Shown here piece by piece: positions 2,894 to 44,100 of a stretch of DNA of 64,000 nt. Position numbers and translations under genes: made by a program. The notes beneath the pieces were generated by a model that ran no database searches, was not told the DNA's origin, and worked only from the letters and a program-made list of their open reading frames with translations. Source of the DNA: Candidatus Omnitrophota bacterium (GTDB lineage: Bacteria > Omnitrophota > Gorgyraeia > Gygaellales > Profunditerraquicolaceae). The first letter of the stretch is position 1, and every line of letters begins with the position of its first letter. Location of the stretch: the NCBI GenBank assembly GCA_026387455.1, contig JAPLLR010000046.1, forward strand, positions 4,921 through 68,920, given 5' to 3'.

Positions 2894-2900
2894 ATGAGCC

Positions 2901-2929
2901 TTTAACGGACGCAATATCCGTGATATAAT
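2901..2929 (+). promoter_or_regulatory. possible extended -10 promoter for the second ATPase
   Basis: TGaTATAAT at 2921-2929 with a weak -35 TTTAAC at 2901-2906 (17-nt spacer). It follows a small hairpin, ACGGA-cgcaata-TCCGT (2905-2921). Confidence 0.3.
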
Positions 2930-2993
2930 ATAAACAATGTGTAACGGCAGGCATAAAGCGAATAGAATTTAAGGGAGAAAGACGGCTAAGCTT

Positions 2994-4322
2994 ATGGAAA
3001 AAGAAAGAATTGCGATAGAAAACGAGATTCTGGACAGGCTGGCAGGCAAGATCTTTCTTTTGCAGGACCGGGCGAATAAGCGCGATATCATTTTTCAGAA
3101 GTTCCTGGAGGTGTATAATTCTATCCCCGGACAGGGGCTGGTGAGCAAGTTAAAAAACACGGACATGGAAGTCCTTTTTAATGATTTTTTTTCTTACGGG
3201 TTGATCGACGAGTTTCTTTCTGACCCAAAAGTAGAAGATATCATGATCAACCATCTTTCTCCTATATACGTGCATAAGACAAACTCCGGGTTGGTTAAGA
3301 CAGATAAGAGGTACACCTCCCGCGAAGAGCTGGATCTGTTGATTAAAAAGCTGGTTATTTTTTCTGGCAGGAAAGAAATCAAGAAGATCAACAATATAGA
3401 GCTTGCTGAGGTTAAAGGAAGAGGCAACATAGTTTATTCTCCTTTCGGGCCGCAGATCACAATCACGCGCGCCAAGGAAAAGCCGCTAAGCATAATTGAG
3501 TTGATTGAGAATGGTACGCTTAACCCTGAGATCGCTGCGCAGTTCTGGTTTTATGTGGAAGGATTAGGGGTTAAGCCCGCAAATATTGTCATATCCGGCG
3601 GGCCCGGGGCGGGAAAATCCACGCTCTTAAACGCGCTTTTTAGTTTTATTCCCGTACATGACCGCATTGTAGTCATTGAAGATACTCTGGAGTTAAATAC
3701 CACCCTTCAGGAGAATTGCTCGCGCCTGGAAAGCGATGAAGATGTATTGCTTATGGATTTGGTGAAGAACTCCCTGCGTATGCGGCCGGACAGGATCATT
3801 GTCGGCGAGGTCCGCGGCCAGGAAGCCCAGGATTTGATGACGGCGATGAACATCGGTAAATACTGCATGGGAACAATGCATGCTTCTACCGCCAGGGAAA
3901 CGATCATCAGGCTTCAGAACGAGCCGATGAATGTTCCGGAAGTATTGGTAAATTTAGTGGATGTATTTGTGATTATGCGGCGTTATAATTTAAACGGCAG
4001 AATTAGCCGCGTGGTCGGCGAGCTGGCAGAGACTGCCGGTATGGCGGATAAGACGATCTTGCTTTCTACGCTATGGACTTATGATTTAGGAACGAATAAT
4101 TTTAAAGAATCTTCCGTAGGCAGCGAATACCGCGATAGGCTTGCGTTAGTGAGCGGTAGGAGCACAGTGGAGATTATGGAAGAATTGAAGTTTCGCTCCG
4201 GTATTATCAGGGCGATGTTGAAAAAAGGCATTAAGGAAATGAAGGATGTAACGGAATTTTTCCAGAGGTATGCCGCTGATCCCCGAGAGGCGGCCGCTTC
4301 ATTAGGCATTAAGAGTAGTTAG
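2994..4322 (+). CDS. second, divergent T2SSE-superfamily (FlaI/VirB11/TadA-like) secretion ATPase
   Basis: 442 aa. Motifs seen: VEDIMINHLSPIYVHK; Walker A GGPGAGKST; IVVIEDTLEL; LRMRPDRIIVGEVRGQEA; His-box-like GTMHAST. It is a paralogue of the preceding gene but clearly diverged, with a longer N-terminal domain. Confidence 0.8.
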   Translation: MEKERIAIENEILDRLAGKIFLLQDRANKRDIIFQKFLEVYNSIPGQGLVSKLKNTDMEVLFNDFFSYGLIDEFLSDPKVEDIMINHLSPIYVHKTNSGLVKTDKRYTSREELDLLIKKLVIFSGRKEIKKINNIELAEVKGRGNIVYSPFGPQITITRAKEKPLSIIELIENGTLNPEIAAQFWFYVEGLGVKPANIVISGGPGAGKSTLLNALFSFIPVHDRIVVIEDTLELNTTLQENCSRLESDEDVLLMDLVKNSLRMRPDRIIVGEVRGQEAQDLMTAMNIGKYCMGTMHASTARETIIRLQNEPMNVPEVLVNLVDVFVIMRRYNLNGRISRVVGELAETAGMADKTILLSTLWTYDLGTNNFKESSVGSEYRDRLALVSGRSTVEIMEELKFRSGIIRAMLKKGIKEMKDVTEFFQRYAADPREAAASLGIKSS

Positions 4323-4335
4323 GGACACTTCCTAC
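4319..4335. repeat. left inverted repeat of the transposase cassette
   Basis: TTAGGGACACTTCCTAC. It contains the TAG stop (4320-4322) of the upstream ATPase gene. Confidence 0.9.
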
Positions 4336-4440
4336 CTTAGTAACATCATTTATATCAAGCACTTAGGATAATCAGGCTAAAATTCCACAAATTTTTCTGT
4401 TAGATTTTGCCACTTCCTTCGTCTATTATAGTGAGGAGGA

Positions 4441-5058
4441 ATGGTTATGTCTAGGACGGCACGCTTCATTCCACGGTATGGCTATCTACACATTATGTCA
4501 CGAGGTAATAATCGCCAACGCATTTTCTCATATGCACGCGACTATCGATTTTATTGCTCATGTTTGAGGAAACTTAAGGCAGAGGAGTCAGTTAAGATTC
4601 ATCACTATTGCTTGATGCCGAACCACCTACACCTTTTGCTTGGTGTAGGGCCGGCAAGCAATGTCGGCCGCTTCATGCAAAGGCTTGGGCTGAAGTATTT
4701 CTACTATTATCGCGCAAGGCGCGATTATATAGGGCATCTATTGCAAGGTAGGTTTAAGAGCAAGATAATTGTTGATGAAAAGTACTTTCTGCAATGCGGA
4801 AAGTATATTGAGTTAAACCCGGTGCGAGCGCAGCTGGTGAGTTTTCCGGAAGAATACGCTTATTCAAGCTATCGGCATTATGCCTTAGGAGGGGAAGATG
4901 AGATCGTCGATGACGACTTTTTCTATCTTAGCCTGCACAACGATGCCACTCGTCGAAAGGAGCTTTATTCAAATATGCTCTTTGATGAGAAAGGGTGTGC
5001 GAAACAATTGCATATTGATTCTTCTAACTTAATGTTTAACAATGAGTTAATAGAGTAG
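4441..5058 (+). CDS. REP-associated tyrosine transposase / IS200-like Y1 transposase (HUH superfamily, COG1943-like)
   Basis: 205 aa with a strong SD (GAGGAGG) before the ATG. HUH motif in HHYCLMPNHLHLLL; GHLLQGRFKSK; C-terminal YIELNPVRAQLV..PEEYAYSSYRHY with the catalytic-Tyr region typical of this family. Confidence 0.8.
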   Translation: MVMSRTARFIPRYGYLHIMSRGNNRQRIFSYARDYRFYCSCLRKLKAEESVKIHHYCLMPNHLHLLLGVGPASNVGRFMQRLGLKYFYYYRARRDYIGHLLQGRFKSKIIVDEKYFLQCGKYIELNPVRAQLVSFPEEYAYSSYRHYALGGEDEIVDDDFFYLSLHNDATRRKELYSNMLFDEKGCAKQLHIDSSNLMFNNELIE

Positions 5059-5072
5059 GAAGTGTCCCTAAT
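5056..5072. repeat. right inverted repeat of the transposase cassette
   Basis: GTAGGAAGTGTCCCTAA. It contains the TAG stop of the transposase (5056-5058) and, on the other strand, the TAG stop (5068-5070) of the convergent TPR gene. Confidence 0.9.
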
Positions 5073-6132
5073 ATCTTTTTTTAGAGCGAATAAACTCGGC
5101 TTTTTCAGATGCCTCTTTGGCTTTATCAGGTTTATTCATCTTTCGATAAAACTTTGCCATATTTTCCAGAACCTTGGCTACGTTTAGATGTTCCTGCCCA
5201 AGATTGCTCATCATTATCTCCAGAGAATCTTCATAAATATTCACTGCTTCTGCATATCGGGTTTCTTTTAAATAAAGCATAGGAAGATTATCTAAAACCC
5301 TGGGTGCATCCGGATGCCAAGGGCCGATATAAAGGTCATTGATATCCATTAGCCGTTTATAAATAGGCTCATTGATTTGTGACCATAGCTTGGCTGCCTC
5401 TGATTTAAGGCGGTTTATTGCCTTGTCAATGCTGGCATCCTCTTGATAAAAACAACTCTTGAACACTCCCCAGGCATACCTGTAATATTGTTCAGCTTCT
5501 GTAAATTTTTGCTGTTTTTCATATAATTTACCCATATCGGATGCCAAACGAATCAGTTTAGGATACTCTTGTCCGGAGTCTGCGATTGCCTGTAGGGAAG
5601 TCTTTAAAATACTTTCCGCCTCGGCGTATTTATGCTGATCCAGATATAAAGAACCTAGGTGGCTACGGACAATAGCAACGGCAGGATCATTGCTGCCTAA
5701 GTTTTTCTCCAGTATGTCTATAGAATTATTGTAAGAACTTTCCGCCTCGTTGAATTTACGCCACGCCTGATAATTCTCTCCCAGGGCATTCCAGACTTTA
5801 GCTGTATAAAGATTATCCAGCCCCAGGGTTAATTCATAGATTCCCAAAGCTTTTTGATAAAGCTCGTCAGCTTGCGCATAGTTGCCTTTAATCTTATAAA
5901 GAGTTGCTAAATTATTAATCATTGCAGCATCGTTAGGATGATCAGGCCCGAATTTTTTTTCAATTACGCCCAGGGCGCTAGTGCCCAGATCTATAGCTTT
6001 TTGATAATCCCCATAGATATAGGCATCGTTATATCCGTCAAGATATTCTTCAACTTGCCAGGATATATCTTCTTCAGCGTAAATTGAGGTAAATACAACA
6101 GCTATAAAAATGGCGATTAGAATCTTGCGCAT
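5068..6132 (-). CDS. secreted/periplasmic tetratricopeptide-repeat (TPR_12, kinesin-light-chain-like) protein
   Basis: 354 aa. N-terminal signal peptide MRKILIAIFIAVVFTSIYA. Repeated units of about 42 aa of the form Y..A..LY..AL.I.EK.LG.DHP..A....NLA.LY. GGAGG SD 7 nt before the ATG. Confidence 0.8.
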   Translation of the reverse strand: MRKILIAIFIAVVFTSIYAEEDISWQVEEYLDGYNDAYIYGDYQKAIDLGTSALGVIEKKFGPDHPNDAAMINNLATLYKIKGNYAQADELYQKALGIYELTLGLDNLYTAKVWNALGENYQAWRKFNEAESSYNNSIDILEKNLGSNDPAVAIVRSHLGSLYLDQHKYAEAESILKTSLQAIADSGQEYPKLIRLASDMGKLYEKQQKFTEAEQYYRYAWGVFKSCFYQEDASIDKAINRLKSEAAKLWSQINEPIYKRLMDINDLYIGPWHPDAPRVLDNLPMLYLKETRYAEAVNIYEDSLEIMMSNLGQEHLNVAKVLENMAKFYRKMNKPDKAKEASEKAEFIRSKKRY

Positions 6133-7889: not shown

Positions 7890-8000
7890 ATGAAACGAAA
7901 GGGCAAACCAGGAGTAATCCTGGGGCGCAAAGCCGCGGATCCTAGAAGTTGGATTAAATAATTTTAAGTTTCTAGTTGTTAGGATAGCCGGGCTGCCGAA
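7890..8000 (+). promoter_or_regulatory. c-di-GMP-I (GEMM-I) riboswitch-like aptamer
   Basis: Conserved GEMM-I blocks occur in the right order. These are ACGAAAGGGCAAACC (7895-7909); a hairpin CCAGGA-GUAA-UCCUGG capped by a GNRA-type loop (7908-7923); GGCGCAAAGCC (7924-7934); a long second stem (AUCCUAGAA 7939-7947 pairing with UUCUA 7970-7974 and GGAU 7982-7985); and a 3' block AGCCGGGCUGCC (7986-7997). Compare the V. cholerae Vc2 aptamer as I remember it: ..ACGCACAGGGCAAACC-hairpin(GAAA)-GGGACGCAAAGCC-stem-GGUAGGUAGCGGGGUUACC. Confidence 0.7.
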
Positions 8001-8044
8001 TACCGACGAAAAAATCAGTATTTGCCAGTTCGGCTTTTATTTTT
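7993..8044 (+). terminator. putative intrinsic terminator / riboswitch expression platform
   Basis: Imperfect hairpin CTGCCGAATACCGA (7993-8006), loop cgaaaaaa, TCAGTATTTGCCAG (8015-8028). An alternative outer pairing is GCCGAA (7995-8000) with TTCGGC (8029-8034). It is followed by TTTTATTTTT (8035-8044). The left arm overlaps the 3' end of the aptamer. Confidence 0.45.
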
Positions 8045-8139: not shown

Positions 8140-11100
8140 ATGCCTAATCAAAAGCCACGGACAGAAGAAGAGAATTCGCTAGAGCAACCCGAGACCCAGG
8201 TGAAATTTGTTTCCAAGTTCCAGGCCTGGATCCGCGTGGTTGCTTTTATTGTTGTAGCGGTCTTTCTTCCGGAGCAGGTAGCCCAGGCAGCGCAGTATGA
8301 TTGGCGCGTGCTCTGGAACAAGCCCGGCGTGACAACTTTTACCCCCAACTATCTTGCTAATCCTGATTCTCTGCGCAATCTGGATATCCCCCTAACCATA
8401 AAGAAGATCCTCAGTGACATCGCCAATAAGCAAGTCAATGCCATAAAGCTTTCTGACAATCTTACCATTGAGCTGGATAGGCCTCTAGAAATGTCCACTG
8501 TGCGCATTGAAGAGATCTTCAACTGGCTCAAGGGCAGGCCTTGCGGCTCAAAAGCGCTTTATGATTTCTTAAGCTTTAAGGGTATCCAAGCCTCTGAGCA
8601 AGATATCGCAGTAATGGCTTTGACCGTGGATATCTTAAATAACGTGGTTAAGCCTGAAGGAAACCCCGAAATTATTCTCAACTCTCTATATGCTTTGTCT
8701 AAGGCTTCTGAGTTCTTCGGCCTTAAGACTTATCCGGTTAAGCTTGCAATAGGAGAGCCTGTTGCTTCCTTAGCGCCATTCTTGGCCCATGTCAACGGCA
8801 ATCACTATGTCTTAGTTACGCGCATAGCAAATGGCAAAGTATATTTCAGCGATCTGCATAAAGAAGAATTTTTGGCCCTAGATAAATTTGCCGAGAAGTT
8901 TACCGGCAATGCTTTAGTCACTCAGCTGATTGATGGCGTTACTGAGCTTAGCGTTAAAGAAGCGATGCAGGTGATGGGGGCAAATGACGATGATTTTGTT
9001 GGGCCTCCAGCTCCAGCGCCCGCTCCACCTAGCTCAGACTTTGTTGGGCCTCCAGCTCCTGCACCAGCTCCTGCACCTGCATCTGCTCCTGCGGCTCCAA
9101 GCTCGGCTTCGTTAAACTCAGGCTATCAGCCGGGCGGCTATAATGGTAATACTTGGGTTCCTCCTTCTGTTGCTACTGCTGATGGCGGTAGGGTTGCTGT
9201 AGGGCCGGTTAGTTCAGGGATAGCCGAAGCCTATAACGCAGCAAATGCAGCGCCTTCACTATCTGCGCCGGCTCCATATTTAGATCGTTTTCAAAGTTCT
9301 GATCTAGGCACAGCTCCTACACCAAAATATGTGGCTCCTTCAGTATCTGCGCCGGCTCCTGTCGCTCCAGCGGCAATAAAGTCTGCTGATTATGCAAGAC
9401 GGCAACAAGCCGAAAACGCATTTAGCTATAGTCCCGGAGCAGGCACTAGTGATTATTATAAAGTCCCGGTAATAGACCAAGAGACAGGGCAGACCATAAG
9501 AACAGAATTAGTGAACAAGCACATTACAGATAGTGCTGAATCTCGCAGAGTCGCTGAAGGATTATTAAAAGATCAGGGCATACAGGTCCAGGGATCTACC
9601 TTGACAACCCTTAAACCTTTAGAACAGCTTGGCACCGCACCTCTTCTCCCGGATAAAATTTTATTTGCAGGAGATGGTAAAACGCCATTTTTGTCATCAC
9701 TCCCTTCAGCGACTAACGGTATTCCTAATTTGGTGGAGCACCAGATCTTGGTGGTGGCTGAAAAAGGAACTCTTCATTATAATATGTATGTTCCTCAAGC
9801 AAACGCTGATATTGCGCCTATCTATGTAGGAGATCATGCTCAGCTGAAAGGGACTCCAGGTTGTCCGAGTGGAATTTGTATGGATGCTGGCTGGAAAGGT
9901 GATACTGCAGCTCGTAATGATGGTGCAGCTTTTGTAGATATTAAAACATGGACGGGATGGCATACAACTACAGGCGAAGTCGCACCCTATGAGCAATTTA
10001 CTAATGGGGTATTTCATATTGGTAAAACTGCGTCAGAGCCACATTTCTCAGGAAACCCTATTGAGAGAGTAATTTTGCAAGATAACGTTGCAGTAGGCAT
10101 TAGTACGCTAGGCCAAACTTCTGCTTATCAACAGCCGGTTGTACTAACTGATGGTACGAAAGTTTCTGCTGAAGGCTGGAGAAATAATTATACGGTTAAT
10201 GTAGTCAAACCGGTTGTCCAGGTAGGACCGGATTTGAAAAACACAAGATATGATGGTTTCTATGTATCGCATGATCAAGCTGGGAATTCTGTTGGAGTAA
10301 GCCCCCTGATGACTAGAGTGGACATAATGGCAGATGTAAACCAGAGGAAAAGTCAGGGGGAGCTATACACACCAACCATGCCCGGAGATAATGTCATAGT
10401 TTTCGCCGGAGATGTAAATTCTTATATTTCAACCGGGGCTGCGATGACTAAAGTTGAGGCATTTGCAAGAGTTCCTAAGATTACCAATGATTTTTATAAT
10501 TATCAGTGGGGCAATAATTTTTATCAGCCTAAAGAATTAGTTGGTTCAGCAGAAAATTATGCTACCGGGCAGGTAATACCTTTTACTAACCCTCAGGAAT
10601 TTATTGATAATACTCATATTAGAATTGCCGCTCCTTTGCAGGATGGAGTTAGCGCTACCGGAGAAATAACCAGTATGTCCGGCTGGAAACAGGATGGTTT
10701 TATGATCCCGCTTGCTCCTTTTACCTCGGCCGACGGGATGGGTTACACAAAGAACGAGCTCACCGGAAAAGTAAAATCGTTCAAGATAGAGGGGGTTGAT
10801 TTTAAAGTTGATTATGCCGCCAAGCAGCCCGATATATTTAATCAGAAGTTATCGGTATATGGCACCGGAGAAGCATTCGCGGTTTTACCGCCTTATAAAA
10901 CGGCGACTGATGGAGGGGCGAGCATCTATATGACAGGGACTAAGGTTGAATTAGGTGTGGGATATAAGGCGGGAGATTCAATAGCAGTTATTTCAACTCA
11001 AGGTATTCAAGGAGGCCGGATAGAATTTCTCGTGCCGAATTTAGATATTAATAAGAATATTCAAGATCAGATAAAAGATGCTACCCAGCCTATGGTTATA

Positions 11101-14100
11101 CAAGATATAAACTTCAACCCCGGATACCAGGCGCAGTTTGCTAGGGATATAAATAAGGATAATACGATCGCGCTTTCCAAGGATGTGTTAGGCGGTAAGG
11201 TTGAGTTCTGGGGCGGGGGAGTAAAGTCATTGTACAGTGGCGAGATAAAGCCTTTAGGCAACAAGGAAGCTTTCTTTAATACTCACGCTGTCGCCGATAG
11301 GAACTTGGGCTTGGAAACAATATACAAGTTTGATAAGCAGGGCCTGACCTACAGCGGGTTACATGCATGGGAGCTGAATAAGTTCATTACCCCTTCAATA
11401 CAAGATCTAACAGGAATTCAGGAAGAGATGAAGAGTACCTTCATCGGAAAAACCCAGAACTATAATGAGGTATTTATTAATAAGGATCAGACGGTTTTCT
11501 ACAAGCCGGAAATATACAATGTTGGCGGCGCAAAAGCAGGACGCATCGAAAAGCTTTCTGTTGAAAAGCTTGCTGATCCTGCGACGTTTAGGACCAGCGA
11601 GGAAAGCAAACATCTTTACAAATCCACCGCGCTTACTCCGGATGCCAAAGTCGCTATTATTCATGCGCAGATCACCGGGCCTGAGCAGCTTAAGACTGAT
11701 GCTGCTACCTTTAGCCCGATGTTTGCGAATGTGCGGCACCAGTTTGAAGGCGGGATAGAAAAGTTTGTTGCAGCCGTGGAGCTTAATGACGCAGGTAAGA
11801 TAAAAGGCGAGGTAATTGCTATCGCTGATGTAAGAGCCTCTGCTGGTCTGCGGGATATCTTTAAAAATAAAGTTGAGATTAAAGGGGATAAGTATGCTTT
11901 AGAAGGGCTTAAAGGGAAGACGTATGAGCTCAATACAGCGGGTTTTGTGCAAGGGCAATTCATCAAAGGCAAGGGTGGCGCGTTATCCGGATGGAATAAT
12001 ATAGATGTGACAACAGATCAATTCCTTGCAATTACCGGAAGACAGGTAGAGAAAACTGATGGGTATCTTAAGGGTGTTGATCTTTGGATTTCGGATGGCG
12101 GCAGCAGAATCCAGGATGTCGGCTATGATAAGGCGAATGCGGGAAGTGGTTTTTATCGTCCGTTAGCTGCGGATAGGGCAGCAGATTTCAACAAGACTAG
12201 AATATGGAAGAACGAATTTGGCAAGGAATATGTAAAAATAGACACCAAATTAGGCGCACTTCCCGGTGATCAGCGCGATACACCCTACCTCATGGTTACC
12301 GATAAAAAAGCGCAGCCGGTCATGGTTGGCATAGGAGAAACTAACACGCAGATGCTGGAGATGTTCGACCAGCTGCACATGGCACGGGCCAACAACGATA
12401 CAGCGCGCATCGCAGAAATAAACAAGAACATAGAAGCAGAAACAACCAGGATAAAGGCGCAGTCCGCAACTTCCGGCAGTGATGGCTGGGATAAGGTATT
12501 TAGCGAAAAAAGGGCTCTGGATTATTCTAAACAAGGTAAATATATCTATGCTGCCGGAAACCAGGTTGCTACTTTTGCTATTAATGAACTTGTCAGCGGC
12601 AATGTGGCCCTATCAGGAGATTTCCGCGGGACCGCTAATACCGGAAGTGTTCTGAATATGAAAGATGAGATCGCAGGGGTCGCCACCACAGTTTTCTTAA
12701 ACAAAAATCAGGAGGCAGCTTTTACAAAAGGTATTTTTAGCGGCGGCAAAGGATTCGCTGATCCAGCCCATGCGGATCTGGGGCAGGTGCTTATAAACAA
12801 TCAAGGCCAGGTTACCAGCGGATATTTCTATGCCGGCACACCTAATCAGCGCGCTACAGAGATCCAAGAGACTATTGTAGAAGTCAAGACAGCAGATGCG
12901 CAAGCTGCAACCGGAAGAATGTTGCTTAAGGATTATTGGTATGAAGCAAAAGGAGCAGCAGATCCTTCCAAAATAGAGCTTCTTGGCGGCACAGTCAGGC
13001 AGGCGCAGGTAGCAGGCTATAATTTGTTGACCAAGGAAACTTCGCTTATAGATTTCTCAAGAAACGGTAATAAGGATAATACTTTTGTGACCAGGGGAGA
13101 TGCTGCTATTCCGTGGCTGGTGCCTGTGGTGGATGGATTTGTGCCGGCAAAAGGCGGGGAAAACAATCCGGATAATCAGGCGCCCTATGCAATGGCGTAT
13201 GAATATAAAAAGGCAGCTCAGACGGATCCGGTGCACACCCTGATCAGCGGGCCGCAGCATCTGGTCTTCAGTCCCACCAATAAGATCACTTCCGAACAGG
13301 GCAGGGTAACCCGCGATATGCTGGACATGAAGAATATTAAGATCGAAGGGGATTCTGCTAGCAAGCCCATTCCTTTGTCAGCGCAGGTGGACAGAGATTT
13401 TAATGTCAAGGCAAGCAAGGGGTTTGAGTTTGTCGGCTCCGGGCAATTGACCACTGATGAGCGCGGCAATATGCAGTTTAATGGCAAGGAAACTAATGTC
13501 AGAGAATATGCCGGCAGCGAAAAAGCCCCTATTGACAGGATGACCCGTCAGGTGTTTGTCGAGGGATTAACGGAACCGATAGAAATGGAATTCCAGAAAG
13601 GCTGGTATAAGACAGATACATTCGGAAATCCTGCAGACGGAGCAGCTGAGGCGGTAGGACTTCAGGGAAAGATGTTTAAGGGCATGAAGCTGGACGGCAT
13701 GGGTCAATTCACATTTGAGGGAAACCATGTAAATTTAGTCCAGGAAATGAGACGTATTGAGGATGTTGAGAAGATAAACCCCCGTGACGCTCAAACTCAG
13801 GCTGCTCTTGAAGCAAAAGTAAATGACATAGTTGCACAAACAAAACCGGAGTTTTCTAAGCCCATCAGCATAGAAGAGGCGGTTAAGCAGATAGCCCAGG
13901 CTTATCTTGATTATAACGCAGAGGGTGCACATTATCATCCTAATGGTGTAGATCCTCGCGGACAGGATAAGAACTGTTTTGGCTTTGCTGTTGATCTTCA
14001 AAACAGGCTTGAACAGATAGGCGTACACAGTACCGTTATACAGGTGGGTGATGGGGATGATCATGCTGCACTTTTGGTAAGAACAGAGGGCGCCAACGGC

Positions 14101-29100: not shown

Positions 29101-32100
29101 TTGTGGGAGGTAGCAGAGAAGTATCGTCTTATCCAACCGGAAAATGCGGTTACCTTTGATATGGCTGAGCCGGTGGTAGAGAGATTATCCCGCAAGGCAG
29201 GCATCTCTAGAGATGAGGCCAGAGAATTTGTTTATCCGTTGGTAACTCAGAGGACTAACCAGAATATCGCGCAAGACGTGCAGAATGCGCATAATGAGTT
29301 GATGGTAACCATGCCAGTAGCTGCCGATATGATACCTTTACCTACCATCGCCAGTGCGACTAGAGATGGCTCATGGCAGCGCTTTACGGACAGATTAAGA
29401 GAGCGCAATGACGCTGACCTTGCGGAAGCCAAACTTATTGCCGAGGCGGTTAACAATACTCAGGCAAAGGGTTGGAATATTGGCAGAGTTCTTACACATA
29501 TTAGCCCGGAGAATTTAGCAAAGACAAGGCAAGATATTGCTACCGGTAAAACAGATACTAATGTTCCGGAAATTGCCAAGCCTGCTGAGCCGAAAGCTCC
29601 TACTCAGGCAGAGATTCGCTCTAGCCTCGAAACTTTAAGCCAGAAGACAGAACGGGTCACTCTTGCCGGAGGACGCAAGGTAGAGGGAGTCAGGGTAGAG
29701 GCCGGCACAGCGGTTGAGATCAGCAATCACCGTCCGGATGGAAAATTTGTAGCTAAGGATCTAGCCAAGCCTAAGGATACGGCAAAGATTAGCGTAAATA
29801 AGGACGGCTCTGTCTTAATTACTAGCAGAAACGGTTTAGGCGATAAACTTGAGAAATTAATCAAGAAAGAAGTTCCGCAAGCGCCTTATGTAGACGCGGT
29901 AAAGCCGATCTCTAGTATTACGCAGACTGTCACTACGATTGCTGTGTGGGGTTTTAGTGTTGCGATTGTTTTAGCAGCAATGCATACCGGTTGGTTTGAC
30001 CCCGCAGCATTAGCGCATCTTGCCGGCTGGAAGGCGTTCTTAGCCAAGGGAATCATTAACGGATCGGTTATGTTGGCAGCTTTGACTTTGCATGAACTTG
30101 GTCATGCTGCTGTCGCTTTCTTTGCCGGAGACAAGAGCCAGAAGGTCAGGGACAGGTTGACGCTCAATCCGCTTAAGCATTTAAGCGTATGGTCTTTACC
30201 TATATTAGCAGGATTACCGGGCGCGGCAAAGCCGGTAGAAGTCAATTTTGGCAGATTAAATGACAATAAGGTGAGGGCAGTAGCTGCCGCAGGTCCGGCA
30301 GTTAACTTAGTTACTGCTGGCCTGGCGCTAGGAATATTCTTATTGACCGGTAATCCCACGGTTGCCTTGTTCGCAAAGCAGTTTGCAATTATCAGCGCTG
30401 TGCTAGGTACCGTTAACCTTATTCCATTTGCCCTTCCTCAATGGATAAGTAAGTTTATCAATAAAGGCAACAATAAGCCGGTATTATTTGACGGCGCGCG
30501 CGTGATCTTAGGCGCGAAAGAGAAAGTTTCGCCTAAGATGCAAATGGTAGGCGGTGTTGCCCTTATGCTTTATATGTTCGGGCTTGGGCCAATTCTGCAA
30601 GGACTTGGTTTTGGCGCTGGATTAGGCGCAGGCATGGGCGGCGGTGGAGCCGGTGTAGGAGTAGGCGGCGCAGCAGGCACCATCGGCAAAGGTAGTGGTT
30701 CTGGCGGTGGCGCTGGCAGAGGCACAGCTGAGGTTAAGAGAATTGAAGAAGATGCCAAAAAGGTCAAGCAGTGGTTTAATGATGATTTGAAGCAGATAAG
30801 AGAGGCAAGAGAGGCTCTAGACAGACGGCTGAGAGAGTTACGCAGTCTTATACCTAAACCTCCAATATTAAGCGAAGAGCAGAGAATATTTACTGAGAAT
30901 ATCTTCAGCCGCATCTATCCGCGTTTGATGACTGTCGGAACTCGTCTAGTGGATAATTACCAGAGACTAGCTGGTGAATATGGCTTAAAGCCGGGCAATA
31001 TACGTCTTTATGTGGTTGGAGGCACTGCCAAGAATAAACAGTTAATCGGCTTCAACAGTGATATTGATTTAACTTTTGTTGTAGAAAATTCCGCTGGTTC
31101 TTTAGAGGTCCTGCCTAATAGAGAAGAGTTAGTGCAGAGCCTCTTTGCGGACACGATAAGAGATGTCTTCGGCGATGCCACTGATCAGGAGAGGGCAGCC
31201 ATCCGCGGTAAACTAGATATGTTAAGGTTAGGAGGAGCGCTGAATGAGATTAATGGTCCAGCATTGCTCCTGGCTAGCAGCGAATCCAATAAAGCGCAAC
31301 AGTCTTCACCTAAGCCTACTCAGCCTACTGGACAAGGTCAAAATAGGCATCAGGAGACTCCGATTGCCCCGACACCATCCACGACTTTGCCAACTCAGGA
31401 GCAAACCGGAGAAAAATCGCCTCTCAGAGGAGCTGTGGTGGGCATGTTTGGCTCAAGCATTGGCGTAGGCAGCCATCCGATAGACATGCTCGCGCCTTTA
31501 GATACCTTAGGTAATACTGTCAATTCACTACAACATTTACTCAGTATAGGTGCTGCACAACGTGTGCTTAGCCCGGGTATTCCCGGGGCGACTGCGAATG
31601 CGCTTTCGCAGGTCGTCGGTACGACAAGTGCGCACAATATAGTTACAATAGTTGCAGTAGTAGGATTAGTTGTAGTAGTAGTCACAGTTGGCGCAATAGC
31701 TCTGGTTAATAGCTTCAGAGCAGATGCGAAAACTGCAGGTGCAGGAAGTGTAATCAGCGGAGACGCTGAAAAGACCAGTGGTTCCCAGTTTGCGCCCGGT
31801 AAAGATGCCGGAAACAAAGGTTCCAGAGGTGTAACCGAAGGAACTCGTAATGGCACGGGGTTGCCTGTAGGAAACAATACAGGTAATACCGGAAATACTG
31901 GTAATGCAGCTACTGGATCCAATGGAAATAATGCAGGTTCTGGCAAGAGAACCGGTGGTTGGGCGAGTGCGGTCGAATTAGTAAGAAAACTGTCTTCATT
32001 TGTACGTATCAAAGGTCCCGCAAATAGCCTCACTCCCGCGCAAGTTGTGTCGGAAACCTATGGCGCTCGTGGTCCGCCCGCAGCACTAACAATCATTATA

Positions 32101-35100
32101 GCTACTTTCGCCGCTACGGTAATGCTGGGCAACATCTATGCCGCATCAGCGGTAACGGTTGCCGGTTTACTCGGCGGATTAGCCATAACAGCCCTCTCGG
32201 TAATTGCCTCCTTTAGCATTAATCATATATACTCCTCAAGACTTTATCCGCAAGACGGCCAGGCCAGCATTATAACCACAGGCGTCTACCGTTATTCTCG
32301 GCACCCGCAGCATCTTTGTCTGCAGTTATCCATGCTTGGTTTCTTGGCGATGTTCCCCACAGTTTATACCGCCATTACCGTCATCGCCGTTGTTTCATTA
32401 TTCCATCTTGAATCCAGAAAAGAGGAAGCGAAGTTATTAAATGACTCAAAGCTGGGAGCAGATTATGCCGAGTATCTCAAGAATTCCGGCTTGAAGATGC
32501 TCCCCAGAGATATTGCTAAAAAGATTAGGCCGTATACTTCTTCCGTGGCAGGAGTGGTGACGGCTATTGTTGTAATCGGAGGCTTATTAGCGGCCCCCCT
32601 CCAGGGATCGACCCCCGCTAAAGCCTCCGATACAACGTATACTACAACCAATCCAATCAATAATATAAATTTAACCAAGTATGGCGAGCCTTCCGTGGCA
32701 GGAGTTCGTCGTACAAATGTTGTATCAGAGGGCTCCACAGAAGGCCGTCCCTCCAGGACATTGACCCCTTTTGCCGGAGCCCTCTTTACAACTCAAGGAG
32801 GTGTACTATGTGCCCTATTAATATTAACACTATTAGCATTGACCACATCGTTGATTTTGGCAAGGACCGCACCACTTTCGCAGCAGCCCGTGAACCTGAT
32901 ACGCACCACCTTAGGATCTTCCTTATTTATCAGGATACTGGCAACGTCTACACTCGTAACGGCCGGGCTGATAGCTGGGAGGAGCTTATTGGCGGCAGGC
33001 GTGATACCATACTTGAGCGCGTTCTTGATGCTCGTAGGAACGGTGTTCCTACTTATCGACTTAACGGTTCGCACGAATAAAATAGGATTAACGGTTCGCA
33101 CGAATAACAATAACATAGGAGGTGTAAAATGTGCACAGATTATAACGAATTACAATTCAACCACTTCGTCGTTACAGCCGACGGCACAATCTTTGGAAGT
33201 GCTAGACACGAAGGTCACACCTACAACTTTATTCTCCACGGCAACTATGTCCAGGCCCAACACGGTGAACAATGGATCGATCTGGACACGCCTATCGCAG
33301 AAGTTGTCAGGAGAAGGGCTCAATCAGCCTACGCTATCGCTCCCCGGTACAAGGCCAGCAGGTTCATCTTCGATTAGAACTGCCGGAGCAGTGGTAGCTT
33401 TGGTGTTGGGTGTGATTCTTATTGCCGGCGCGCTGGCAGGCATTCCTCATGGAGTGGCCCCTGTCAGCGCCGCCGTTGCATTGGGGATGTGCAGCCAGGA
33501 AGGAGTTGCTACCGAGGAAGATAGCTTTAGGAATTTAAGGTTAACCCCTGATTACATCCGAAGCGTCCGCTTCGATGAGGAAGAAATAAGAGGGGCGGAT
33601 GAAACTGAACGCCGCATCAATCTTCTTATAAAAGGTATGGGGGACTCTAATTCTCCTTCCGAAATTGGAATAGTAAAGATCCCGGGAAGCCTGAAACGGG
33701 ATAGCTGCCGGGTGTTCAGGTTCAGTAATATAGAAATGACATTTTTTGAGGTCACCAGCCGCTTTGATTCGCAGGAAGGAAGATTCTCTTTGCCGGCGTT
33801 GCCTCAACAGCATGCTTTCCTGATTTCATCAAAATCAAATGATGTCATAGGGCACGGAATCATTAATCGGCCTGTCGGTATTAACGATGAAGTATGGTTC
33901 AGGTATGCTATCCACGGCGGACCTCACAGCAAAATTGGAGCTGATTTCCGGAAAAAAGATTATTATGGGACCAAGGCTTTGGTTTTGATTATGGCGATAT
34001 GTGTAAGCAGCGGTATTTTCAAGGGCCCTGTGAATGCGATTACAACATATTTTGAGAGAGATGAACAGCGCGCTGATCCGGAAGCAGTTCCCGCGGGTAA
34101 GAAATTTATATATGCCAGAGGATGTACTCCTGTTAAGGATAATGATTATTCTCTCTGGCAGTTTAGAATGGATGGTAAAGCCATACCTACCGTAGATGTA
34201 GATGAAAAAGAGCTTGCTAAGCTTGATGGTCGGTCAGCGCAGGAAGACGACTTTGTGGAAGTCAAACTCGGTGACCTGGTGTTTGAGAACGGTCAGCTTT
34301 TCTACCGCCCGAAGGCAAAACCTGAGGATTCAAAGGGCTTGTCCGGTTTTGCGCTTAACTTGAGCCTCTGGCAGTCAGGTTTGATTGTCACTGCAGTTAT
34401 CGTTTTAGTCGCAGCTATAGCCGTAGCCGTAATGGCTAATAGCGTCAGGGGAGATATTTCTTACTTGGATAAGGCTAGAGTTATTCTAGCCAGCCGCTAT
34501 CTGGAAGATTATCAGCGCAGGCAGTTGTTTACGAGAATGGCTAAGGGAGAAATCAGGTTTACCCAGGACACTAGGTTCAGCGACGAAGCGGTGTCCATAT
34601 CAGGAAAGTCATTAAAAGATATTGCCCAGGAAGTATTAAAAGTTATTAATTACTATGAAAATTCGACGCCCTCAGTCAAGGCCAAGGGCACCAATATTCT
34701 GGCCAGACTGTTTTCTTCCCTTGGTTTTATAGTGTTTGTTATTGTGGGTATATATGAATTTGTCTATGCCATGTCTGATTATAACGATGGCAGGGGCAAA
34801 AATTACGCTGCTATGAATAATGTGGATGAACTTAGCTATTCCGTTAGAGATCGTATTTGGGCTTCTCAGGAAGAGTTCATCAGATTATTAGGCGAGGATC
34901 CCAGTAAGGCTGTAAAAGCCGACAAAAAAGAGAAAATCGGCAAGGTAGCTCAGATGTTGGATTTCATGAATGTCCATCGCCAGGCCATCCAGAAATATGC
35001 CGATCAGTATGGAATCGATCCGGAGCTACTTGCCGCGATCCTCTTGACTGAAAGACTGGATATGTTTGAAGGAGATTTCCCGTGGGAGGTTAATACTGAC

Positions 35101-38100: not shown

Positions 38101-41100
38101 ATAAATGAGATGGCCAGGCAAGCTAGCCGCGCGCCGAATAATATGTTTAACCGCGCCAATATTGTACGCATATCCGTATTACTTGCCGCAGTTATTCTGT
38201 TAATCTCCGTAGGATTATTCCATTTCGTAATTCTGGCAGCAACCACAGTAGAAGCAGATATCGAAGAAACAAAGTCTAGGATCAAGGCTGAAATATTAAG
38301 GCTTAGCGGTTCTGTATATGACAATGAGAGGTCTAAAGTAATAGCCGAATTCTTTAAAGGTTTGCCGGAGCAAGACCTTGCTCTGGCAGTGGATGTACTT
38401 TTGGAATTATCCGATGATCCTAGTATTGGACAATGCTGCATAAATCACTCTATGACCCTTTCTCTTGCAGAGAGCTGCCGCGTCAGGCCGGAGCTTATGG
38501 AGATAGTGGCTTCGAGAATTGCGAATTTAATAAGTCAGGGCATAGGCAGGAAGGCTATGCTGGTAGAGATCATCAATTTATTTAGTCTGGTATCTTATGA
38601 GAACCGCGTCTTAGGAAAATCAGATTTCTCAGCGATGCTCTTGTGGAAGATGCAGGAATTAGGCATACCTATGCCGAGAATTATGGAATTGTTGGGTGGG
38701 TGTTTCAAGACCTGGCGTGAAGATTTGGAATATGATTATACATGGCCTGAACAATCTCTCGGAGAGAGCATTGGTTTAAATTGCAATGGCGGAGCGGTAA
38801 TATTGAAGTCCATTGATAAGAGCTGGTATTATATTTTTAACACAGACAATGTTTGTATAGGCAGCGCGCTGATTAGCTGCGCTATGCAAAGGAATGCAGC
38901 TTACCTTTATATTAATATATGGACTGGAGCAGGCAAGGGCATAGGGACTGAGATTATGCGCTTTGTCGCCGAAAAGATAAGCAGAGTTGATGGGCCCAGC
39001 GTTATAGGGGTATTTGTCCCGGCGGACAAGGATTATGTAAGATTCTTGCTGCGCTGCGCAAAGCTGGGAGTTATCAATAGAGTTGAGCTTAAAGTCGAAG
39101 ATAGCGCTAAGTATATCAATAGCGTAGGCATGGGCAATTGGAATATGCCGGAACAGTCTTCGGGTTGGCAGGTAATTACGAATGAAGCAGAGATGGATAA
39201 TTTTGGCAAAGGCAGAATATTTGCCAGATGCATTGTAGATGCAAACCAGCCGCAGACTCCTTCCGTGGCAGGAAAGAATGCGGCTACTGACAATAAGGGC
39301 ACGGAGGAACAGAGAAAGGTAAGCTCTTCCGTAGCCCTTGTTACAGACAAGCTTGGGGTGCTGGTAGCGATAGTTGGAGCATCAATTCTATTAGCGTTGT
39401 CAGCGAAATTCTTAGGGCTGGCTTTATTAATCGGCGTTGCAGCGGTAAACAATGATGATGCGAAATACGTGTTGAATATCGAACTCCTCAAGGCAGAGCT
39501 TGTCAATAAGGGGATTCTTCGCGATAAAGATCAACCGCTTAATATTAATCCTGCAGTATTAATTGCTGTTAGCGATTTCTGCTATACCGATGGAGAGTAT
39601 TTGGTAGGAAGAGAATTCCGTAGGCTTGCCAAGGCATTAGGGCTTGTGATGAGGGAGCTGGAGAGAAGAACCGGTAAACCGGCTGCAGAGATCAGTCTTA
39701 GCCAGAGCAGCCTTACCAAAGAAGAAATCGCAAACATCTTAAATGCGGCTAAGGAAGAAGATTATGCGCAAAGAGAGGTAAGCGCGTTCTCCAGAAAGAT
39801 AGAGCTTGGCCAGAGGTTGCTTAAGGGCGGCACTTCTGCCGAGACCATCCTGCAATTCTTAACTGGTAGATTCTTTGGGGCAACCTCAGGGTCCACTAGG
39901 TCTATCAGCGCTACTGAACATAAAGTGAAAGATTTACTCTTTGATATAGATCATACCCAGGAAGGCAAGTCTTTGCGTAAGAAAGAAGAGACAGCCAGAT
40001 TACTGAAAGAGCTTCTCGGCCAGGTGGTGATCGACAATGTCAATATTCCCAAGTTTTTCGCCTTTGATATCGATGACACCTTAACCAAAGCAGACATTAA
40101 ATCCTTTAACGCTATGGTTGAAGTCTTAAAAGAAGACCCATCTGCATTTGTAGGAATAATTACCGGAACAGGCGCTTTTGACCTGAATTATGATTCAGAA
40201 GAAGAGCGCATTGCTGAGAAAGACGCAATATATGACACCAAGATTAAGCCGGCTCTGGTTAAACTTGGCCTGAACCCGGATCGCCTAGATTTTGTTATCT
40301 CTGTTGTTTCTACTCCAAAGCCGAGAAAGCAATGGACTGAGTCGCCTATGGTTAATCCTTGGGTTAGCATTAATGCATACTGGTGTGTAAAGATTAATGA
40401 CGGAAACGGTGGTTTTATCAAACAGTATCCGACAGAAAGCAACTTTAGAGGTATAAATAAGCTCACCGGAGCCAGCAAATTATTCGAATATTTTGCCCAT
40501 AAATTCTCTAACAACGCAACAGTTTCTTGGGAAAGGGCAGCTCAGTTGGCTACTCAGTTCCTGCATAGGTCAGTATTGGTTATGGCGGATGATGATCTTG
40601 AGCATGCGCGTATTCCTGTGATTTGCAAGCCTACCAATAGCAAGGAAAAAGGTATGTTGCAGCAGCTTGGCGCTCATTCGCGCGAAAACGAGATACAGGA
40701 GCCTTTCGGAGTAGGCAGGATTTATATTAATACTAACGTTATCAAGTGCCCCTGGTTAACCATCGAAAAAGCTCCTGAAGAGTTTGTTTTTGATTTTGAA
40801 ATTGATGTCATCCTGGGTCTGACTACATTGCTTGAGCATATGAATGACCCTAAGCGTAACGCGCGTATCTTTAACGTGGAAATCGAAGCCCATCGCGTTA
40901 AACCGGTTAACGGTACTGCTAACGGTAATTCCACAGATCCTCAGGTCGCGACTTACCGCGCTCCCGGCTCAAGGGATAGGGGCGCGCGCAAGGGCTTGCC
41001 CAAGGAGATCAGAAACGCCGAAGAAAAAGATTCCGCGAACATCAGGCAATACTTGCTTGACGATGACGGCGAGGTAGCTAAGCTCATCGCAGGGCGCAAT

Positions 41101-44100
41101 AGCAGCGAATTAACATATTACGGATTCTATAAGAAGCTGGCAGAAGAGATCCTGCCTCAGGGCAAGGTTATCTTTAAGGTTATACCTTCCCAGAATATGG
41201 GCTTCAGGAGAGACGACGGCGATAAGACCTATATCTATGCCGTCGGCACAAAAGGCGATATTACCTATATCTATGTCACTTCTGCTTTATATGAAAAGAT
41301 CAGGGCAAGCACATATTTCAAAGCTGCCCTTTGCGTCCATGAGGTAGGCGAGACTAGAGACGTGTTCAATCACCTGACTGCCATGAAAGAAGAGATCCGC
41401 TTTTCCAGCGATCCGAAAAGCAACTTAAGCGACATGCAGCGTCTTGTATTTGATTCCGAGAATGATAAAGGAAACATGGCTTACCTATTAAGCATTATCC
41501 CGGATCGCCTTGTCCAGAAGGCATATTCTGATATCACCAGCGAGATGATCAGCTATGTAAGCCTGCTTATCGCCAAGCAGGTGCACGAAAGGCCGGTAGA
41601 CGCAGCTGTCATAGAGGAGGATGCTAATATCGCTGATTCTTTGCGTCATAGGCTATTCGATTCCATAAATAAGGCTACCCAGAATATTAGCATCCTTGGG
41701 CAGGGAGGCATATTATCAGAAGAGGTAAGGGGCGCCCTGAAAACTACCGAAGAATCAATCAACATCATTCTTACTTCCATAGAGGATGGAAAATTGAACC
41801 CCATAGCCAAAGACGCAGCGATCAAATTGCTTAAGAAACAGGCCAGGATCCTTAGGGAATTAACAGAAAATATGGCTTATTTGGAAAGATTCGAATCTTT
41901 TAATTCTCTTAAGAAGGATATCGATGAGTTCTACAAGAGGGTAGTTGAGGGGACACCTACGGTGGTAAAGGACCAGGAGCTGATTGACCTGGCTGATTTT
42001 ATGCAAGCCATCCACACTGAGCATTATGGGTATGGCTTTAGGCCGGTTGTTTCTGACCCTGGAATGCCTTTACCTATATTAATTAATGCGCATGACCTGA
42101 TGAGGATCTTTGAAGATCTATTACAGGCAATAGCTAGGAGAGCACATAAATCTAACACGGCAGTAGTATTTGTCACTGAACCCGGATTAATTAAAGTGAT
42201 TTTTAAGAACACCGATGCAGACGTAGTTGCTGTTCAGGCACTGCTGGAGAAGTGGCATGGCAGGGCATATCGTACACAGATAATCGGCACTTTAGGTGAT
42301 ATCGTCTTAGAGTTCCCTAAGGCTTTCAAGCTCTATCAGACTATTTCAAATGAAGTATTGGCTCAACTTGCAAATACAGATTGGGTTGTTTCTGTCTGTC
42401 AGCATAAAGAAAACCATGAGAATTTTATTGTTGATGAAAAGGTAAGTAGGATGACCGTTTACGGCCAGTATCTTTCACATGGCATGTGTCCGCAGTGCGA
42501 AAAGAAGAATCGTCCTGTTGAGTCAGAAGCTCAGGCAGCCGCAGCGAAGGTTCCGTCTGCGCCAACCAAGATCAGAGTTTTGTTTGTGGATGACGAAAAA
42601 GCAATTAGGGATATGATGGCGGGAAGAAATAATATGCCAGGATACCTGGCGATGATAGCTAAAGATAAGACAGTGAATCTTTCTTTTGAAGTGGTGATCG
42701 CGGAAAACGCCCAGAAGGCGCTTAACGCGTTTGTAGATGCCCAAAAGAAAGGACAACCTTTTGACTTAGTGGTCACCGATATGTCCATGCCGAAAAATCC
42801 TGATGAAGAGATCGAAGGCGGACGTGAATTAGCCCAGGCGATTAAGAAGATTGCACCCCAGACTTATATTATTATGGTCAGCGGTCATCACAGCCAGATG
42901 ACAGAGGTGGCCCAAGCTATCAAGGAAAATGTAATCAATAGTTTCTACACCAAGCCATTTATCGGAGAGGCAGTTAAGGAAGCGCTGCTAGGGTTTAAGA
43001 CCGCGCCCAACCTACAGGAAAAAGCACCTGTTAAGCAGGATGTTAGTATACTTGGTTCTGCGGCTGCCAGTGCCACAGCAGCGGCTACAGCAGCGCTGGC
43101 TTTCTACGCAGCAAAGGCAGTGATTATTTCCAGCTTTCATCCTTTCGCCATAGCGTTATTCGGAGTTTTAGCAGCAGTGTGTTTTGTCTCTGCGGCATGG
43201 GCTTATCTTTTTGGTTCGCAGGCTATCAGGCTATGGTTAACCAGGGCCAAGCCTGTACGCGCGCCTCCTGAGGCAAGAGCCAGGTTAGAAGCACAGCTGC
43301 AGGATTTCTTCGGGCCTGATGTCAAGGTGGTTCTGGAATCCGACTGTAAGACTATTGCCTCAAGCGATAAAGATAATAAGACAGTATTTGTTGATATCGA
43401 TTGGCTTTATAGGGTAGCTCCCCGCGCAACTGAACTTACCTCGTTCCAGAAATCTCTCCTCACCCATGAAAAAGCCCACTTAAACGGTGCCACAGAATCA
43501 GAAGCTTATATTGCCCAGGTTCTCGCTTCCCTTGTCCAGGATATTAATAATGCTAAGGGCGTTAAATTATGGGCGCTGTTCCTGGGTGTAGTTACATTAT
43601 GCCTAAGTTATAATAAACTTATTGCCGCATTTCCGATTTTAGCCACAGGCTGGATCGGAGTCCTTCTTATTGGCACAGCACTGGTGTTGTTGGGTGTTAA
43701 CTTTGTGCTTGCAAAATTCACCAAGAGAGGGGCTTCAGCTTTCTTTACCACAGTTGCATTGACTTTCTTCTTTGTCGGTCTTCTATTGGCGGTGGATGTG
43801 TTTAACCCGCTTTACGGAAATATCCTGAAGAGCTGGTTTCCGCAGACATGGTTGGCTTACATTGCTGACATGCGCGGAGCGGCAATAGCGATAGTAGCTT
43901 TTATTTCTCTGATCGTTCTGCCGGCTTTGATCAGGGAATATCAGGATAAGTTGGCCAAAGAGGATATCTATAAATACGATATCAAGGCTTTAAAAGATAA
44001 TCTTCTCAGGTTTATTAACGACGACATCAAGGATGAAAAGGTCAGGCAAAACTATATTGATCAGGTGGAAAGAATTGCTGTAAATAATTCTCGGGCAAAT

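Follow-up and report, generated by a model that had tools for sequence, protein, structure and literature searches.

A CheY-type receiver domain with a complete catalytic set in a loop of an Omnitrophota giant membrane protein

Background

Could a membrane protein of at least 18,620 amino acids (aa) be a direct target of two-component signalling? The question is raised by a stretch of 64,000 nucleotides (nt) from a Candidatus Omnitrophota bacterium (assembly GCA_026387455.1, contig JAPLLR010000046.1, positions 4,921 to 68,920), hereafter the window, which carries a very long stop-free reading frame that we call the giant open reading frame (ORF). An earlier note, made from the letters of the sequence, had placed in the product of this ORF a CheY-like receiver domain (REC), preceded by a stretch of faint GHKL/HATPase-like character and a Cys/His cluster, and had taken the receiver to mean that a histidine kinase switches the protein, as a second regulatory layer besides a c-di-GMP leader. 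Here we examine these elements by profile searches, database comparisons and structure modelling. REC is a bona fide CheY-type receiver, the segment upstream of it is not recognisable as a DHp/GHKL kinase core, and the cluster is apparently a degenerate version of a 4-Cys module that has no name.

A CheY-type receiver in the frame of the giant ORF

The four landmarks from which the receiver had been recognised in the earlier note, VDDE, VVTDMSMP, SGH and KPF, all lie in the frame of the giant ORF (Table 1), as do the strings it gave for the upstream segment and the cluster, and the profile search proposed there bore the assignment out. Response_reg (PF00072) matched with 41.2-44.1 bits (E 2e-10 to 3e-11) against a curated cut-off of 30.2, the excised segment 42565-42990 giving 44.1 bits (E 2.6e-11), and REC was still matched within a 5000-aa chunk of the protein (33.4 bits, E 5.4e-8). 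In a phmmer search of the PDB, REC matched the sequences of 14 solved receivers, and the three catalytic motifs line up in these alignments: the acceptor-Asp motif falls on VVTDMSMP, the one with the Thr/Ser on MVSGH and the Lys-Pro motif on TKPF. The catalytic quintet is complete (D11484, D11485, D11547, S11581 and K11605), and the aromatic switch residue and the Pro after the Lys are present as well. The claim that a phospho-acceptor is built into the giant membrane protein therefore stands, in the form of an intact pocket within a multi-pass protein.

We searched aa 10445-11644 of the giant protein exhaustively with phmmer against 1.84 billion representative proteins, and obtained about 95 receiver matches. 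Since 50 of the 102 proteins concerned carry a kinase core elsewhere in their sequence, REC appears to be of the ordinary two-component type. In an alignment of the giant protein with 34 of these relatives, none of which is an orthologue, the acceptor D11547 (alignment D267) is invariant among the 35 sequences, and D11485 (D205) and K11605 (K325) are conserved in at least 90% of them. Given this alignment, AF2 modelled aa 11477-11621 as a (beta-alpha)5 fold with pLDDT 85-97. A Foldseek search of the PDB with the REC model placed 3jte at the top (E 1.4e-8, TM 0.88 on the target) and returned 272 matches at E <= 0.001, which were receivers only, with BeF3-activated forms among the top ones. No second receiver or internal paralogue was found in the rest of the giant protein by phmmer with REC as the query.

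REC thus shares the (beta-alpha)5 fold and the catalytic set of the CheY-like receivers of PF00072, of which 3jte, 3kcn and 8pdc are the closest solved examples. Unlike these, it is buried about 11,500 residues deep in a protein at least 18,620 aa long, with hydrophobic segments on either side; relative to canonical receivers it is enlarged by about 14 residues from alpha1 to beta2 and by about 5 behind beta3; and it comes with neither an identifiable output domain nor a cognate kinase nearby.

Judged by its residues, REC is most likely phosphorylatable. A receiver might also do its work independently of phosphorylation, by giving structure or mediating dimerisation, or might serve as a phosphate sink whose state has no control over the giant protein. 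Such a role would fit the lack of a visible cognate kinase, the unusual insertions, and the fact that receivers are scattered over 105 long Omnitrophota proteins with a logic that has not been described. It would also fit a domain that was shuffled as an isolated unit: the closest receiver in a long protein, at 44% identity, belongs to P0009, a protein of 6,364 aa with tandem receivers that shares nothing else with the giant protein. Pseudo-receivers, however, usually lose some of the catalytic residues, whereas in REC the five catalytic positions, the aromatic switch and the Lys-Pro pair are all intact, and we consider a phosphorylation-independent role unlikely, if worth keeping in mind.

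The segment upstream of the receiver

The relatives of REC are often the C-terminal receivers of hybrid histidine kinases (HisKA-HATPase_c-REC), and in the giant protein, as in these kinases, the receiver comes after a segment of considerable size. This orphan segment, for which neither a fold nor homologues were found apart from its 3' end (see below), includes the stretch to which GHKL/HATPase-like character had been ascribed (Table 1). The locus might accordingly be read as a degenerate hybrid kinase, in which aa ~11206-11446 would be a DHp plus GHKL remnant stripped of the H, N, G1, F and G2 boxes, REC would be the tail of an absorbed dead kinase, and the remnant would serve as a docking or pseudo-kinase unit. 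The position of the segment directly 5' of the receiver, as in hybrid kinases, and the kinase cores carried by half of the relatives of REC speak for such an origin, and PLPILINAHDLMRIFEDLLQAIARRA resembles an N-box helix by eye.

Profile searches did not detect a kinase core. Over nt 41500-43150, neither HATPase_c nor HisKA matched in Pfam at E <= 1; NCBIfam matches were restricted to the linker and the receiver, with none on the alleged GHKL segment; and a phmmer search of the PDB with the upstream segment at E <= 10 gave nothing relevant. A purpose-built hidden Markov model (HMM), made from 52 DHp+CA cores of the hybrid-kinase relatives of REC, scored the region upstream of REC below unrelated windows of the giant protein. 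Comparing aa 11161-11470 with the kinase-core profile by hhalign did yield a collinear alignment over 192 columns with a score of 15.7 (P = 0.14), but 34 of 115 other segments taken from the giant protein (30%) and 27 of 100 shuffles (27%) scored as high, and in the best register every kinase box residue is replaced. By inspection of aa 11161-11470, none of the H, N, G1, F and G2 boxes could be found, and no His resembling the phospho-accepting His of an H box was identifiable.

In the joint AF2 model, aa 11317-11376 form a helix-strand-strand-helix unit with pLDDT 58-71, which would be compatible with a remnant, but the segment folded alone (single-sequence AF2) reached a mean pLDDT of 39, too poor to decide for or against a Bergerat ATP-binding fold, and a Foldseek search with this model found no GHKL protein, the best match having E 0.19. 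The weak matches include several proteins of the nucleotidyltransferase fold, which at pLDDT 39 is uninterpretable, as is a faint PAP_NTPase match in Pfam (E 0.27).

A GHKL/HisKA core upstream of REC is therefore not supported, since Pfam, NCBIfam, PDB, our own HMM and the hhalign controls were negative or at the level of noise and the model had no GHKL match; the GHKL/HATPase-like character reported in the earlier note failed in every sequence test. Because the upstream segment has no recognisable DHp/GHKL core, and unlike hybrid kinases lacks their boxes and any HisKA/HATPase_c match, REC is seemingly not the tail of a hybrid kinase. The stretch right before REC moreover matches a 4-Cys module instead (next section), and we regard descent from a hybrid kinase as very improbable.

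The Cys/His cluster and a 4-Cys module

Cys is strikingly scarce in the giant protein (57 of 18,620 residues, 0.31%), and because of this scarcity the three-Cys cluster before REC stands out, with three Cys and three His within the 34 residues aa 11420-11453. The cluster (CQHKENH...CPQC), which had been noticed from the letters, is indeed present, and its second half has relatives. Only one protein in the exhaustive search, P0033, had a match that started upstream of REC (from aa 11348) and extended into the 3' end of the orphan segment, which was otherwise without any match. P0033 has 265 aa, is annotated as 'CheY-like chemotaxis protein', and consists of a partial REC, a coiled coil, ICANCKKIRDDKGYWTQVEVYISDHSETEFSHGLCPEC, a linker and a REC. 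By BLASTP, the second half of the cluster (LSHGMCPQCEKK) was aligned to P0033 together with the linker and the receiver. Both proteins share SHG-x-CP-x-C, then a linker, of similar length in the two, and then REC.

In P0033 the 4-Cys module occupies aa 70-141, between the two receiver domains. A search with this module as the query retrieved 282 database proteins (E <= 0.01), whose consensus reads LPICAxCKKIRDDKGYWxQIEAYIxDHSEAEFSHGICPECAKKLYP. The module is covered by no Pfam or NCBIfam model, and our literature search found no publication with its motif; together with the coiled coil, it may constitute an undescribed signalling or metal-binding domain.

We built an HMM of the module from 120 family members. 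It scored aa 11445-11468 of the giant protein (LSHGMCPQCEKKNRP...) with 11.9-14.8 bits, far above the controls: the next best window of the protein gave 2.8 bits, and shuffling the segment 2000 times or the whole protein 30 times never produced more than 6.6 bits. The recognisable part is the second half of the cluster only. The C-terminal half of the module, FSHGxCPxC (continuing as FSHGxCPxCxKK in module proteins such as P0033), is present in the giant protein as LSHGMCPQC, followed as in P0033 by a linker and a downstream receiver, and the first Cys of the module aligns as well (VVSVCQ; mafft --add). Unlike P0033, the giant protein lacks in this alignment the second Cys and the KKIRDDKG loop of the other half, PICxxCKKIRDDxGxW; a His (CQH) may substitute for the missing Cys. 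On this pattern the cluster looks like a degenerate copy of the 4-Cys module, which may still bind metal.

The loop around the receiver and its membrane topology

The loop that has REC at its end spans 1,220 aa (about aa 10440-11634) and is free of hydrophobic segments. In order, the loop consists of aa 10469-10932, aa 10937-11179, the orphan aa 11180-11444, the Cys cluster, an Ala-rich linker and REC. About 14 residues past helix alpha5 of REC begin two hydrophobic segments that we read as a transmembrane (TM) hairpin, followed by the strongly Arg/Lys-rich stretch RLWLTRAKPVRAPPEARAR. Going by the positive-inside rule alone, the loop that carries REC is probably cytoplasmic. After the hairpin, and before further TM segments, comes a 113-aa loop with an HExxH motif (HEKAH), which is the nearest candidate for an output element of REC. 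The TM/HExxH region after REC had no Pfam match at E <= 1, and no homologue of it was found; by eye, IASSDKDNKTVFVDIDWL...LLTHEKAHLNG recalls the loop of an M48/M56-type membrane peptidase.

We also considered that a transmitter-like cassette was captured whole, consisting of the helix, the 4-Cys module as a metal-binding unit, the linker and REC, and that it controls the HExxH module. The 4-Cys module would then take the place of the kinase core, with metal or redox sensing gating phosphotransfer, and the HExxH module would possibly be a protease that processes the giant polypeptide. We hold this elaborate version to be improbable as a whole.

The first part of the loop, aa 10469-10932, is conserved in four database proteins found by the exhaustive search (P0001, P0002, P0004 and P0005). 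It contains a putative HAD-superfamily-like domain that was missed by Pfam and that we assign from motifs only, namely FDIDDTLT (motif I, nt 40063-40086), GIIT, GINK and ADDD. Among the relatives that cover it, P0001 and P0002 keep all four motifs and P0004 the first three. This would be a second domain of the aspartyl-phosphate type in the loop of REC. The second part of the loop matches the C-terminal part of P0003, a metagenome protein of 609 aa that starts with ALTTAQ repeats; HEIGEH in P0003 corresponds to HEVGET in the giant protein.

The giant ORF, its leader and its gene neighbourhood

With more than 10,000 aa and many TM segments, and located in an Omnitrophota genome, the product of the giant ORF is an Omnitrophota giant membrane protein. 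A hydropathy scan showed an N-terminal TM anchor (aa 23-51), then about 6,700 aa without a hydrophobic segment, a region with about 35-40 of them (aa 6735-12401), and a TM-free remainder up to the end of the window. Pfam islands in the visible protein are limited to Peptidase_C39, an M50-like stretch, ICMT/PEMT-like segments, Response_reg and a Glyoxalase fragment. A SecA_DEAD-like domain has been reported in most full-length giant genes; it had no Pfam match in the visible 18,620 aa of the present protein, which extends beyond the window.

The Peptidase_C39 domain near the N-terminus bears on another reading of REC, in which the giant polypeptide is cleaved, for instance by its own C39-type peptidase, so that REC would work in a small fragment and, with the membrane module that follows, would amount to an ordinary membrane-bound response regulator. 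West-Roberts et al. (10.1101/2023.11.21.568195) raised self-cleavage as a possibility, and low-complexity linkers flank REC. There is no evidence for cleavage sites, however, and the double-Gly leader that C39 substrates need was not searched for. We hold cleavage to be quite improbable as the explanation of REC, although the two readings, cleavage and our preferred explanation (see Discussion), are compatible and could both hold.

Upstream of the giant ORF, the c-di-GMP leader proposed in the earlier note was recovered as a c-di-GMP-I-GGC riboswitch aptamer of family RF03167 (64.7 bits, Table 1), which lies directly 5' of the ORF start with 139 nt between its end and the ATG. No aptamer of this type reached the threshold in the seven related loci that we scanned.

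The genes on the 5' side in the window encode two T2SSE/PilT-like ATPases, an IS200-like transposase, a TPR protein and two proteins without a Pfam match. The first PilT-like ATPase shares 89% identity with proteins from several metagenome-assembled genomes (MAGs) of Candidatus Omnitrophota (JAGVER01, CAZSQC01 and JBAZGV01 being relatives at this identity), which places the organism in that phylum. In the related MAG loci (L002-L007), whose ATPase is 66-89% identical, different genes and a 6S RNA come after the ATPase, and none has a giant gene within 10 kb of it. The neighbourhood of the giant gene has thus been rearranged. An identical first ATPase was found only on a Logan contig of 5,032 nt from SRR20698647 (L011), on which the gene types follow one another as at positions 1820-6132 of the window (ATPase, ATPase, Y1_Tnp, TPR), but which ends before the giant gene; it serves as a pointer to the type of sample in which the organism occurs. 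For the gene directly 5' of the giant ORF, no public contig encoding the same protein was found.

Table 1. Positions of the features discussed in the text (nt, window coordinates; aa, residues of the giant protein).
Feature	nt	aa	Strand	Remarks
IS200-like (Y1_Tnp) transposase	4441-5058		+	between the PilT-like ATPases and the giant gene
c-di-GMP-I-GGC riboswitch aptamer (RF03167)	7893-8001		+	cmscan 64.7 bits, gathering score 59, E 5.2e-13
Giant ORF	8140-63999	at least 18,620 aa	+	stop-free frame, ATG at 8140; continues past the 3' end of the window
Peptidase_C39 domain	8683-8922	182-261	+	Pfam, 30.3 bits
Peptidase_M50-like stretch	30070-30345		+	Pfam, below cut-off
ICMT/PEMT-like membrane methyltransferase segments	32179-32436		+	Pfam; inside the TM-rich region
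HAD-superfamily-like domain (putative)	40042-40629	10635-10830	+	motifs only
Region common to P0003	40948-41676	10937-11179	+	34% identity, exhaustive search
Orphan segment, including the alleged GHKL-like stretch DLMRIFEDLLQAIARRA ... VIFKNTD	41677-42396	11180-11419	+	fold and homologues not found
DLMRIFEDLL	42094-42123		+	in the alleged GHKL-like stretch
VIFKNTD	42196-42216		+	in the alleged GHKL-like stretch
Cys/His cluster and tail	42397-42543		+	C11420, H11422, H11426, H11447, C11450, C11453
CQHKENH	42397-42417		+	first part of the cluster
SHGMCPQC	42475-42498		+	second part of the cluster
Ala/Pro-rich linker (EKKNRPVESEAQAAAAKVPSAPTK)	42499-42567		+	Cys cluster to beta1 of REC; low pLDDT in the model
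CheY-like receiver (REC)	42568-43002	11477-11621	+	Pfam PF00072, PDB alignments, AF2, Foldseek
VLFVDDEK	42577-42600	11480-11487	+	acid-pocket string of REC
Acid pocket D11484/D11485	42589-42594	11484, 11485	+	catalytic residues
VVTDMSMP	42769-42792	11544-11551	+	acceptor-Asp string of REC
Phospho-acceptor D11547	42778-42780	11547	+	catalytic residue
MVSGHH	42874-42891		+	Ser/Thr string of REC
S11581	42880-42882	11581	+	catalytic residue, in the Thr87 position
Aromatic switch F11602		11602	+	REC
YTKPF	42946-42960		+	Lys-Pro string of REC
K11605, then P11606	42952-42957	11605, 11606	+	catalytic residue (K11605)
Two hydrophobic segments, read as a TM hairpin	43042-43227	11635-11658, 11660-11696	+	hydropathy, flanking charges
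HExxH motif HEKAH	43465-43479	11776-11780	+	in the 113-aa loop after the hairpin, before further TM segments

Discussion

Our preferred explanation, to which we give a probability of roughly 0.6, is that REC lies in a loop of a giant multi-pass protein, is phosphorylated by a donor encoded elsewhere and acts on an adjoining module or on a partner. REC would have arrived as a small signalling cassette made of a short helix, the degenerate 4-Cys module, the Ala-rich linker and the receiver itself. A histidine kinase or Hpt protein encoded elsewhere would transfer a phosphoryl group onto D11547; this donor might be the product of a separate gene, a stretch of the giant protein that lies past the end of the window, or another giant protein. 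A kinase donor inside giant proteins is plausible because HATPase_c occurs in 136 of 916 long Omnitrophota proteins (2026 preprint, 10.64898/2026.06.07.730766). Phosphorylation would rearrange S11581, F11602 and K11605 and so alter the alpha4-beta5-alpha5 face, which might then act on the TM hairpin with the HExxH-bearing membrane module behind it, or on a partner protein. The cytoplasmic location, the phosphorylation, the donor and the output of REC would all have to be as supposed here, and a phospho-switch thrown by a histidine kinase, as the earlier note had it, is a reasonable idea that we infer from the intact receiver.

Several observations weigh against this explanation. Neither the other genes of the window nor the 18,620 aa visible of the giant protein yielded a kinase, HisKA, HATPase_c or Hpt domain. 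The modules that adjoin REC are orphans, so that any statement about its output is a guess, and the alpha1-beta2 and post-beta3 insertions could change partner recognition. As for topology, the start of the loop is acidic (NNDDAKY after the TM segment aa 10405-10436), which does not favour the cytoplasmic side; a topology derived from hydropathy only is uncertain, and topology predictions for giant proteins are unreliable according to West-Roberts et al. (10.1101/2023.11.21.568195). Orthologues, in which selection on the acceptor Asp could be read, are lacking as well: a word-index search of 5.8 billion clustered proteins found none for aa 11180-11700, the exhaustive search of the 1.84 billion representatives found only generic receivers for the REC part, and the JGI metagenome contigs yielded no orthologue but one receiver of 25% identity, at the C-terminus of a 598-aa protein. 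This lack fits the finding that, among Omnitrophota proteins of 10,000 aa or more, 80% of the sequence clusters have a single member (10.64898/2026.06.07.730766).

The giant protein resembles giant proteins already catalogued from the same phylum in exceeding 10,000 aa, in its many TM segments, in its N-terminal Peptidase_C39 domain and in carrying PF00072. West-Roberts et al. (2023, 10.1101/2023.11.21.568195) named CheY-like receivers as constituents of giant proteins from Omnitrophota and Actinobacteria, and listed HATPase_c, GGDEF and HAD with the domains met most often; PF00072 was counted in 105 of 916 long Omnitrophota proteins, the largest architecture cluster of which is the Peptidase_C39 group (10.64898/2026.06.07.730766). 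Receivers in Omnitrophota giant proteins are therefore already on record, and the idea is less novel than the earlier note implied. The two preprints, however, list PF00072 without analysing residues, neighbours or partners, and the present REC region differs from the catalogued proteins in having no detectable orthologue. Neither preprint mentions a riboswitch ahead of a giant gene, although one of them does remark that PilZ genes and GGDEF domains occur in the surroundings of such genes (10.1101/2023.11.21.568195; 10.64898/2026.06.07.730766). What is new lies in the detail, namely the intact residues, the lack of an adjacent kinase core, the 4-Cys remnant in the same order as in P0033, and the combination with the aptamer.

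For the biology of this protein class, the gain is detail for one case and no new principle. A receiver that looks phosphorylation-competent in a loop of a giant protein means that two-component signalling may act directly on the protein, an input that would add to that of the c-di-GMP-type aptamer in the leader of its gene, and it offers a concrete handle on this class of proteins.

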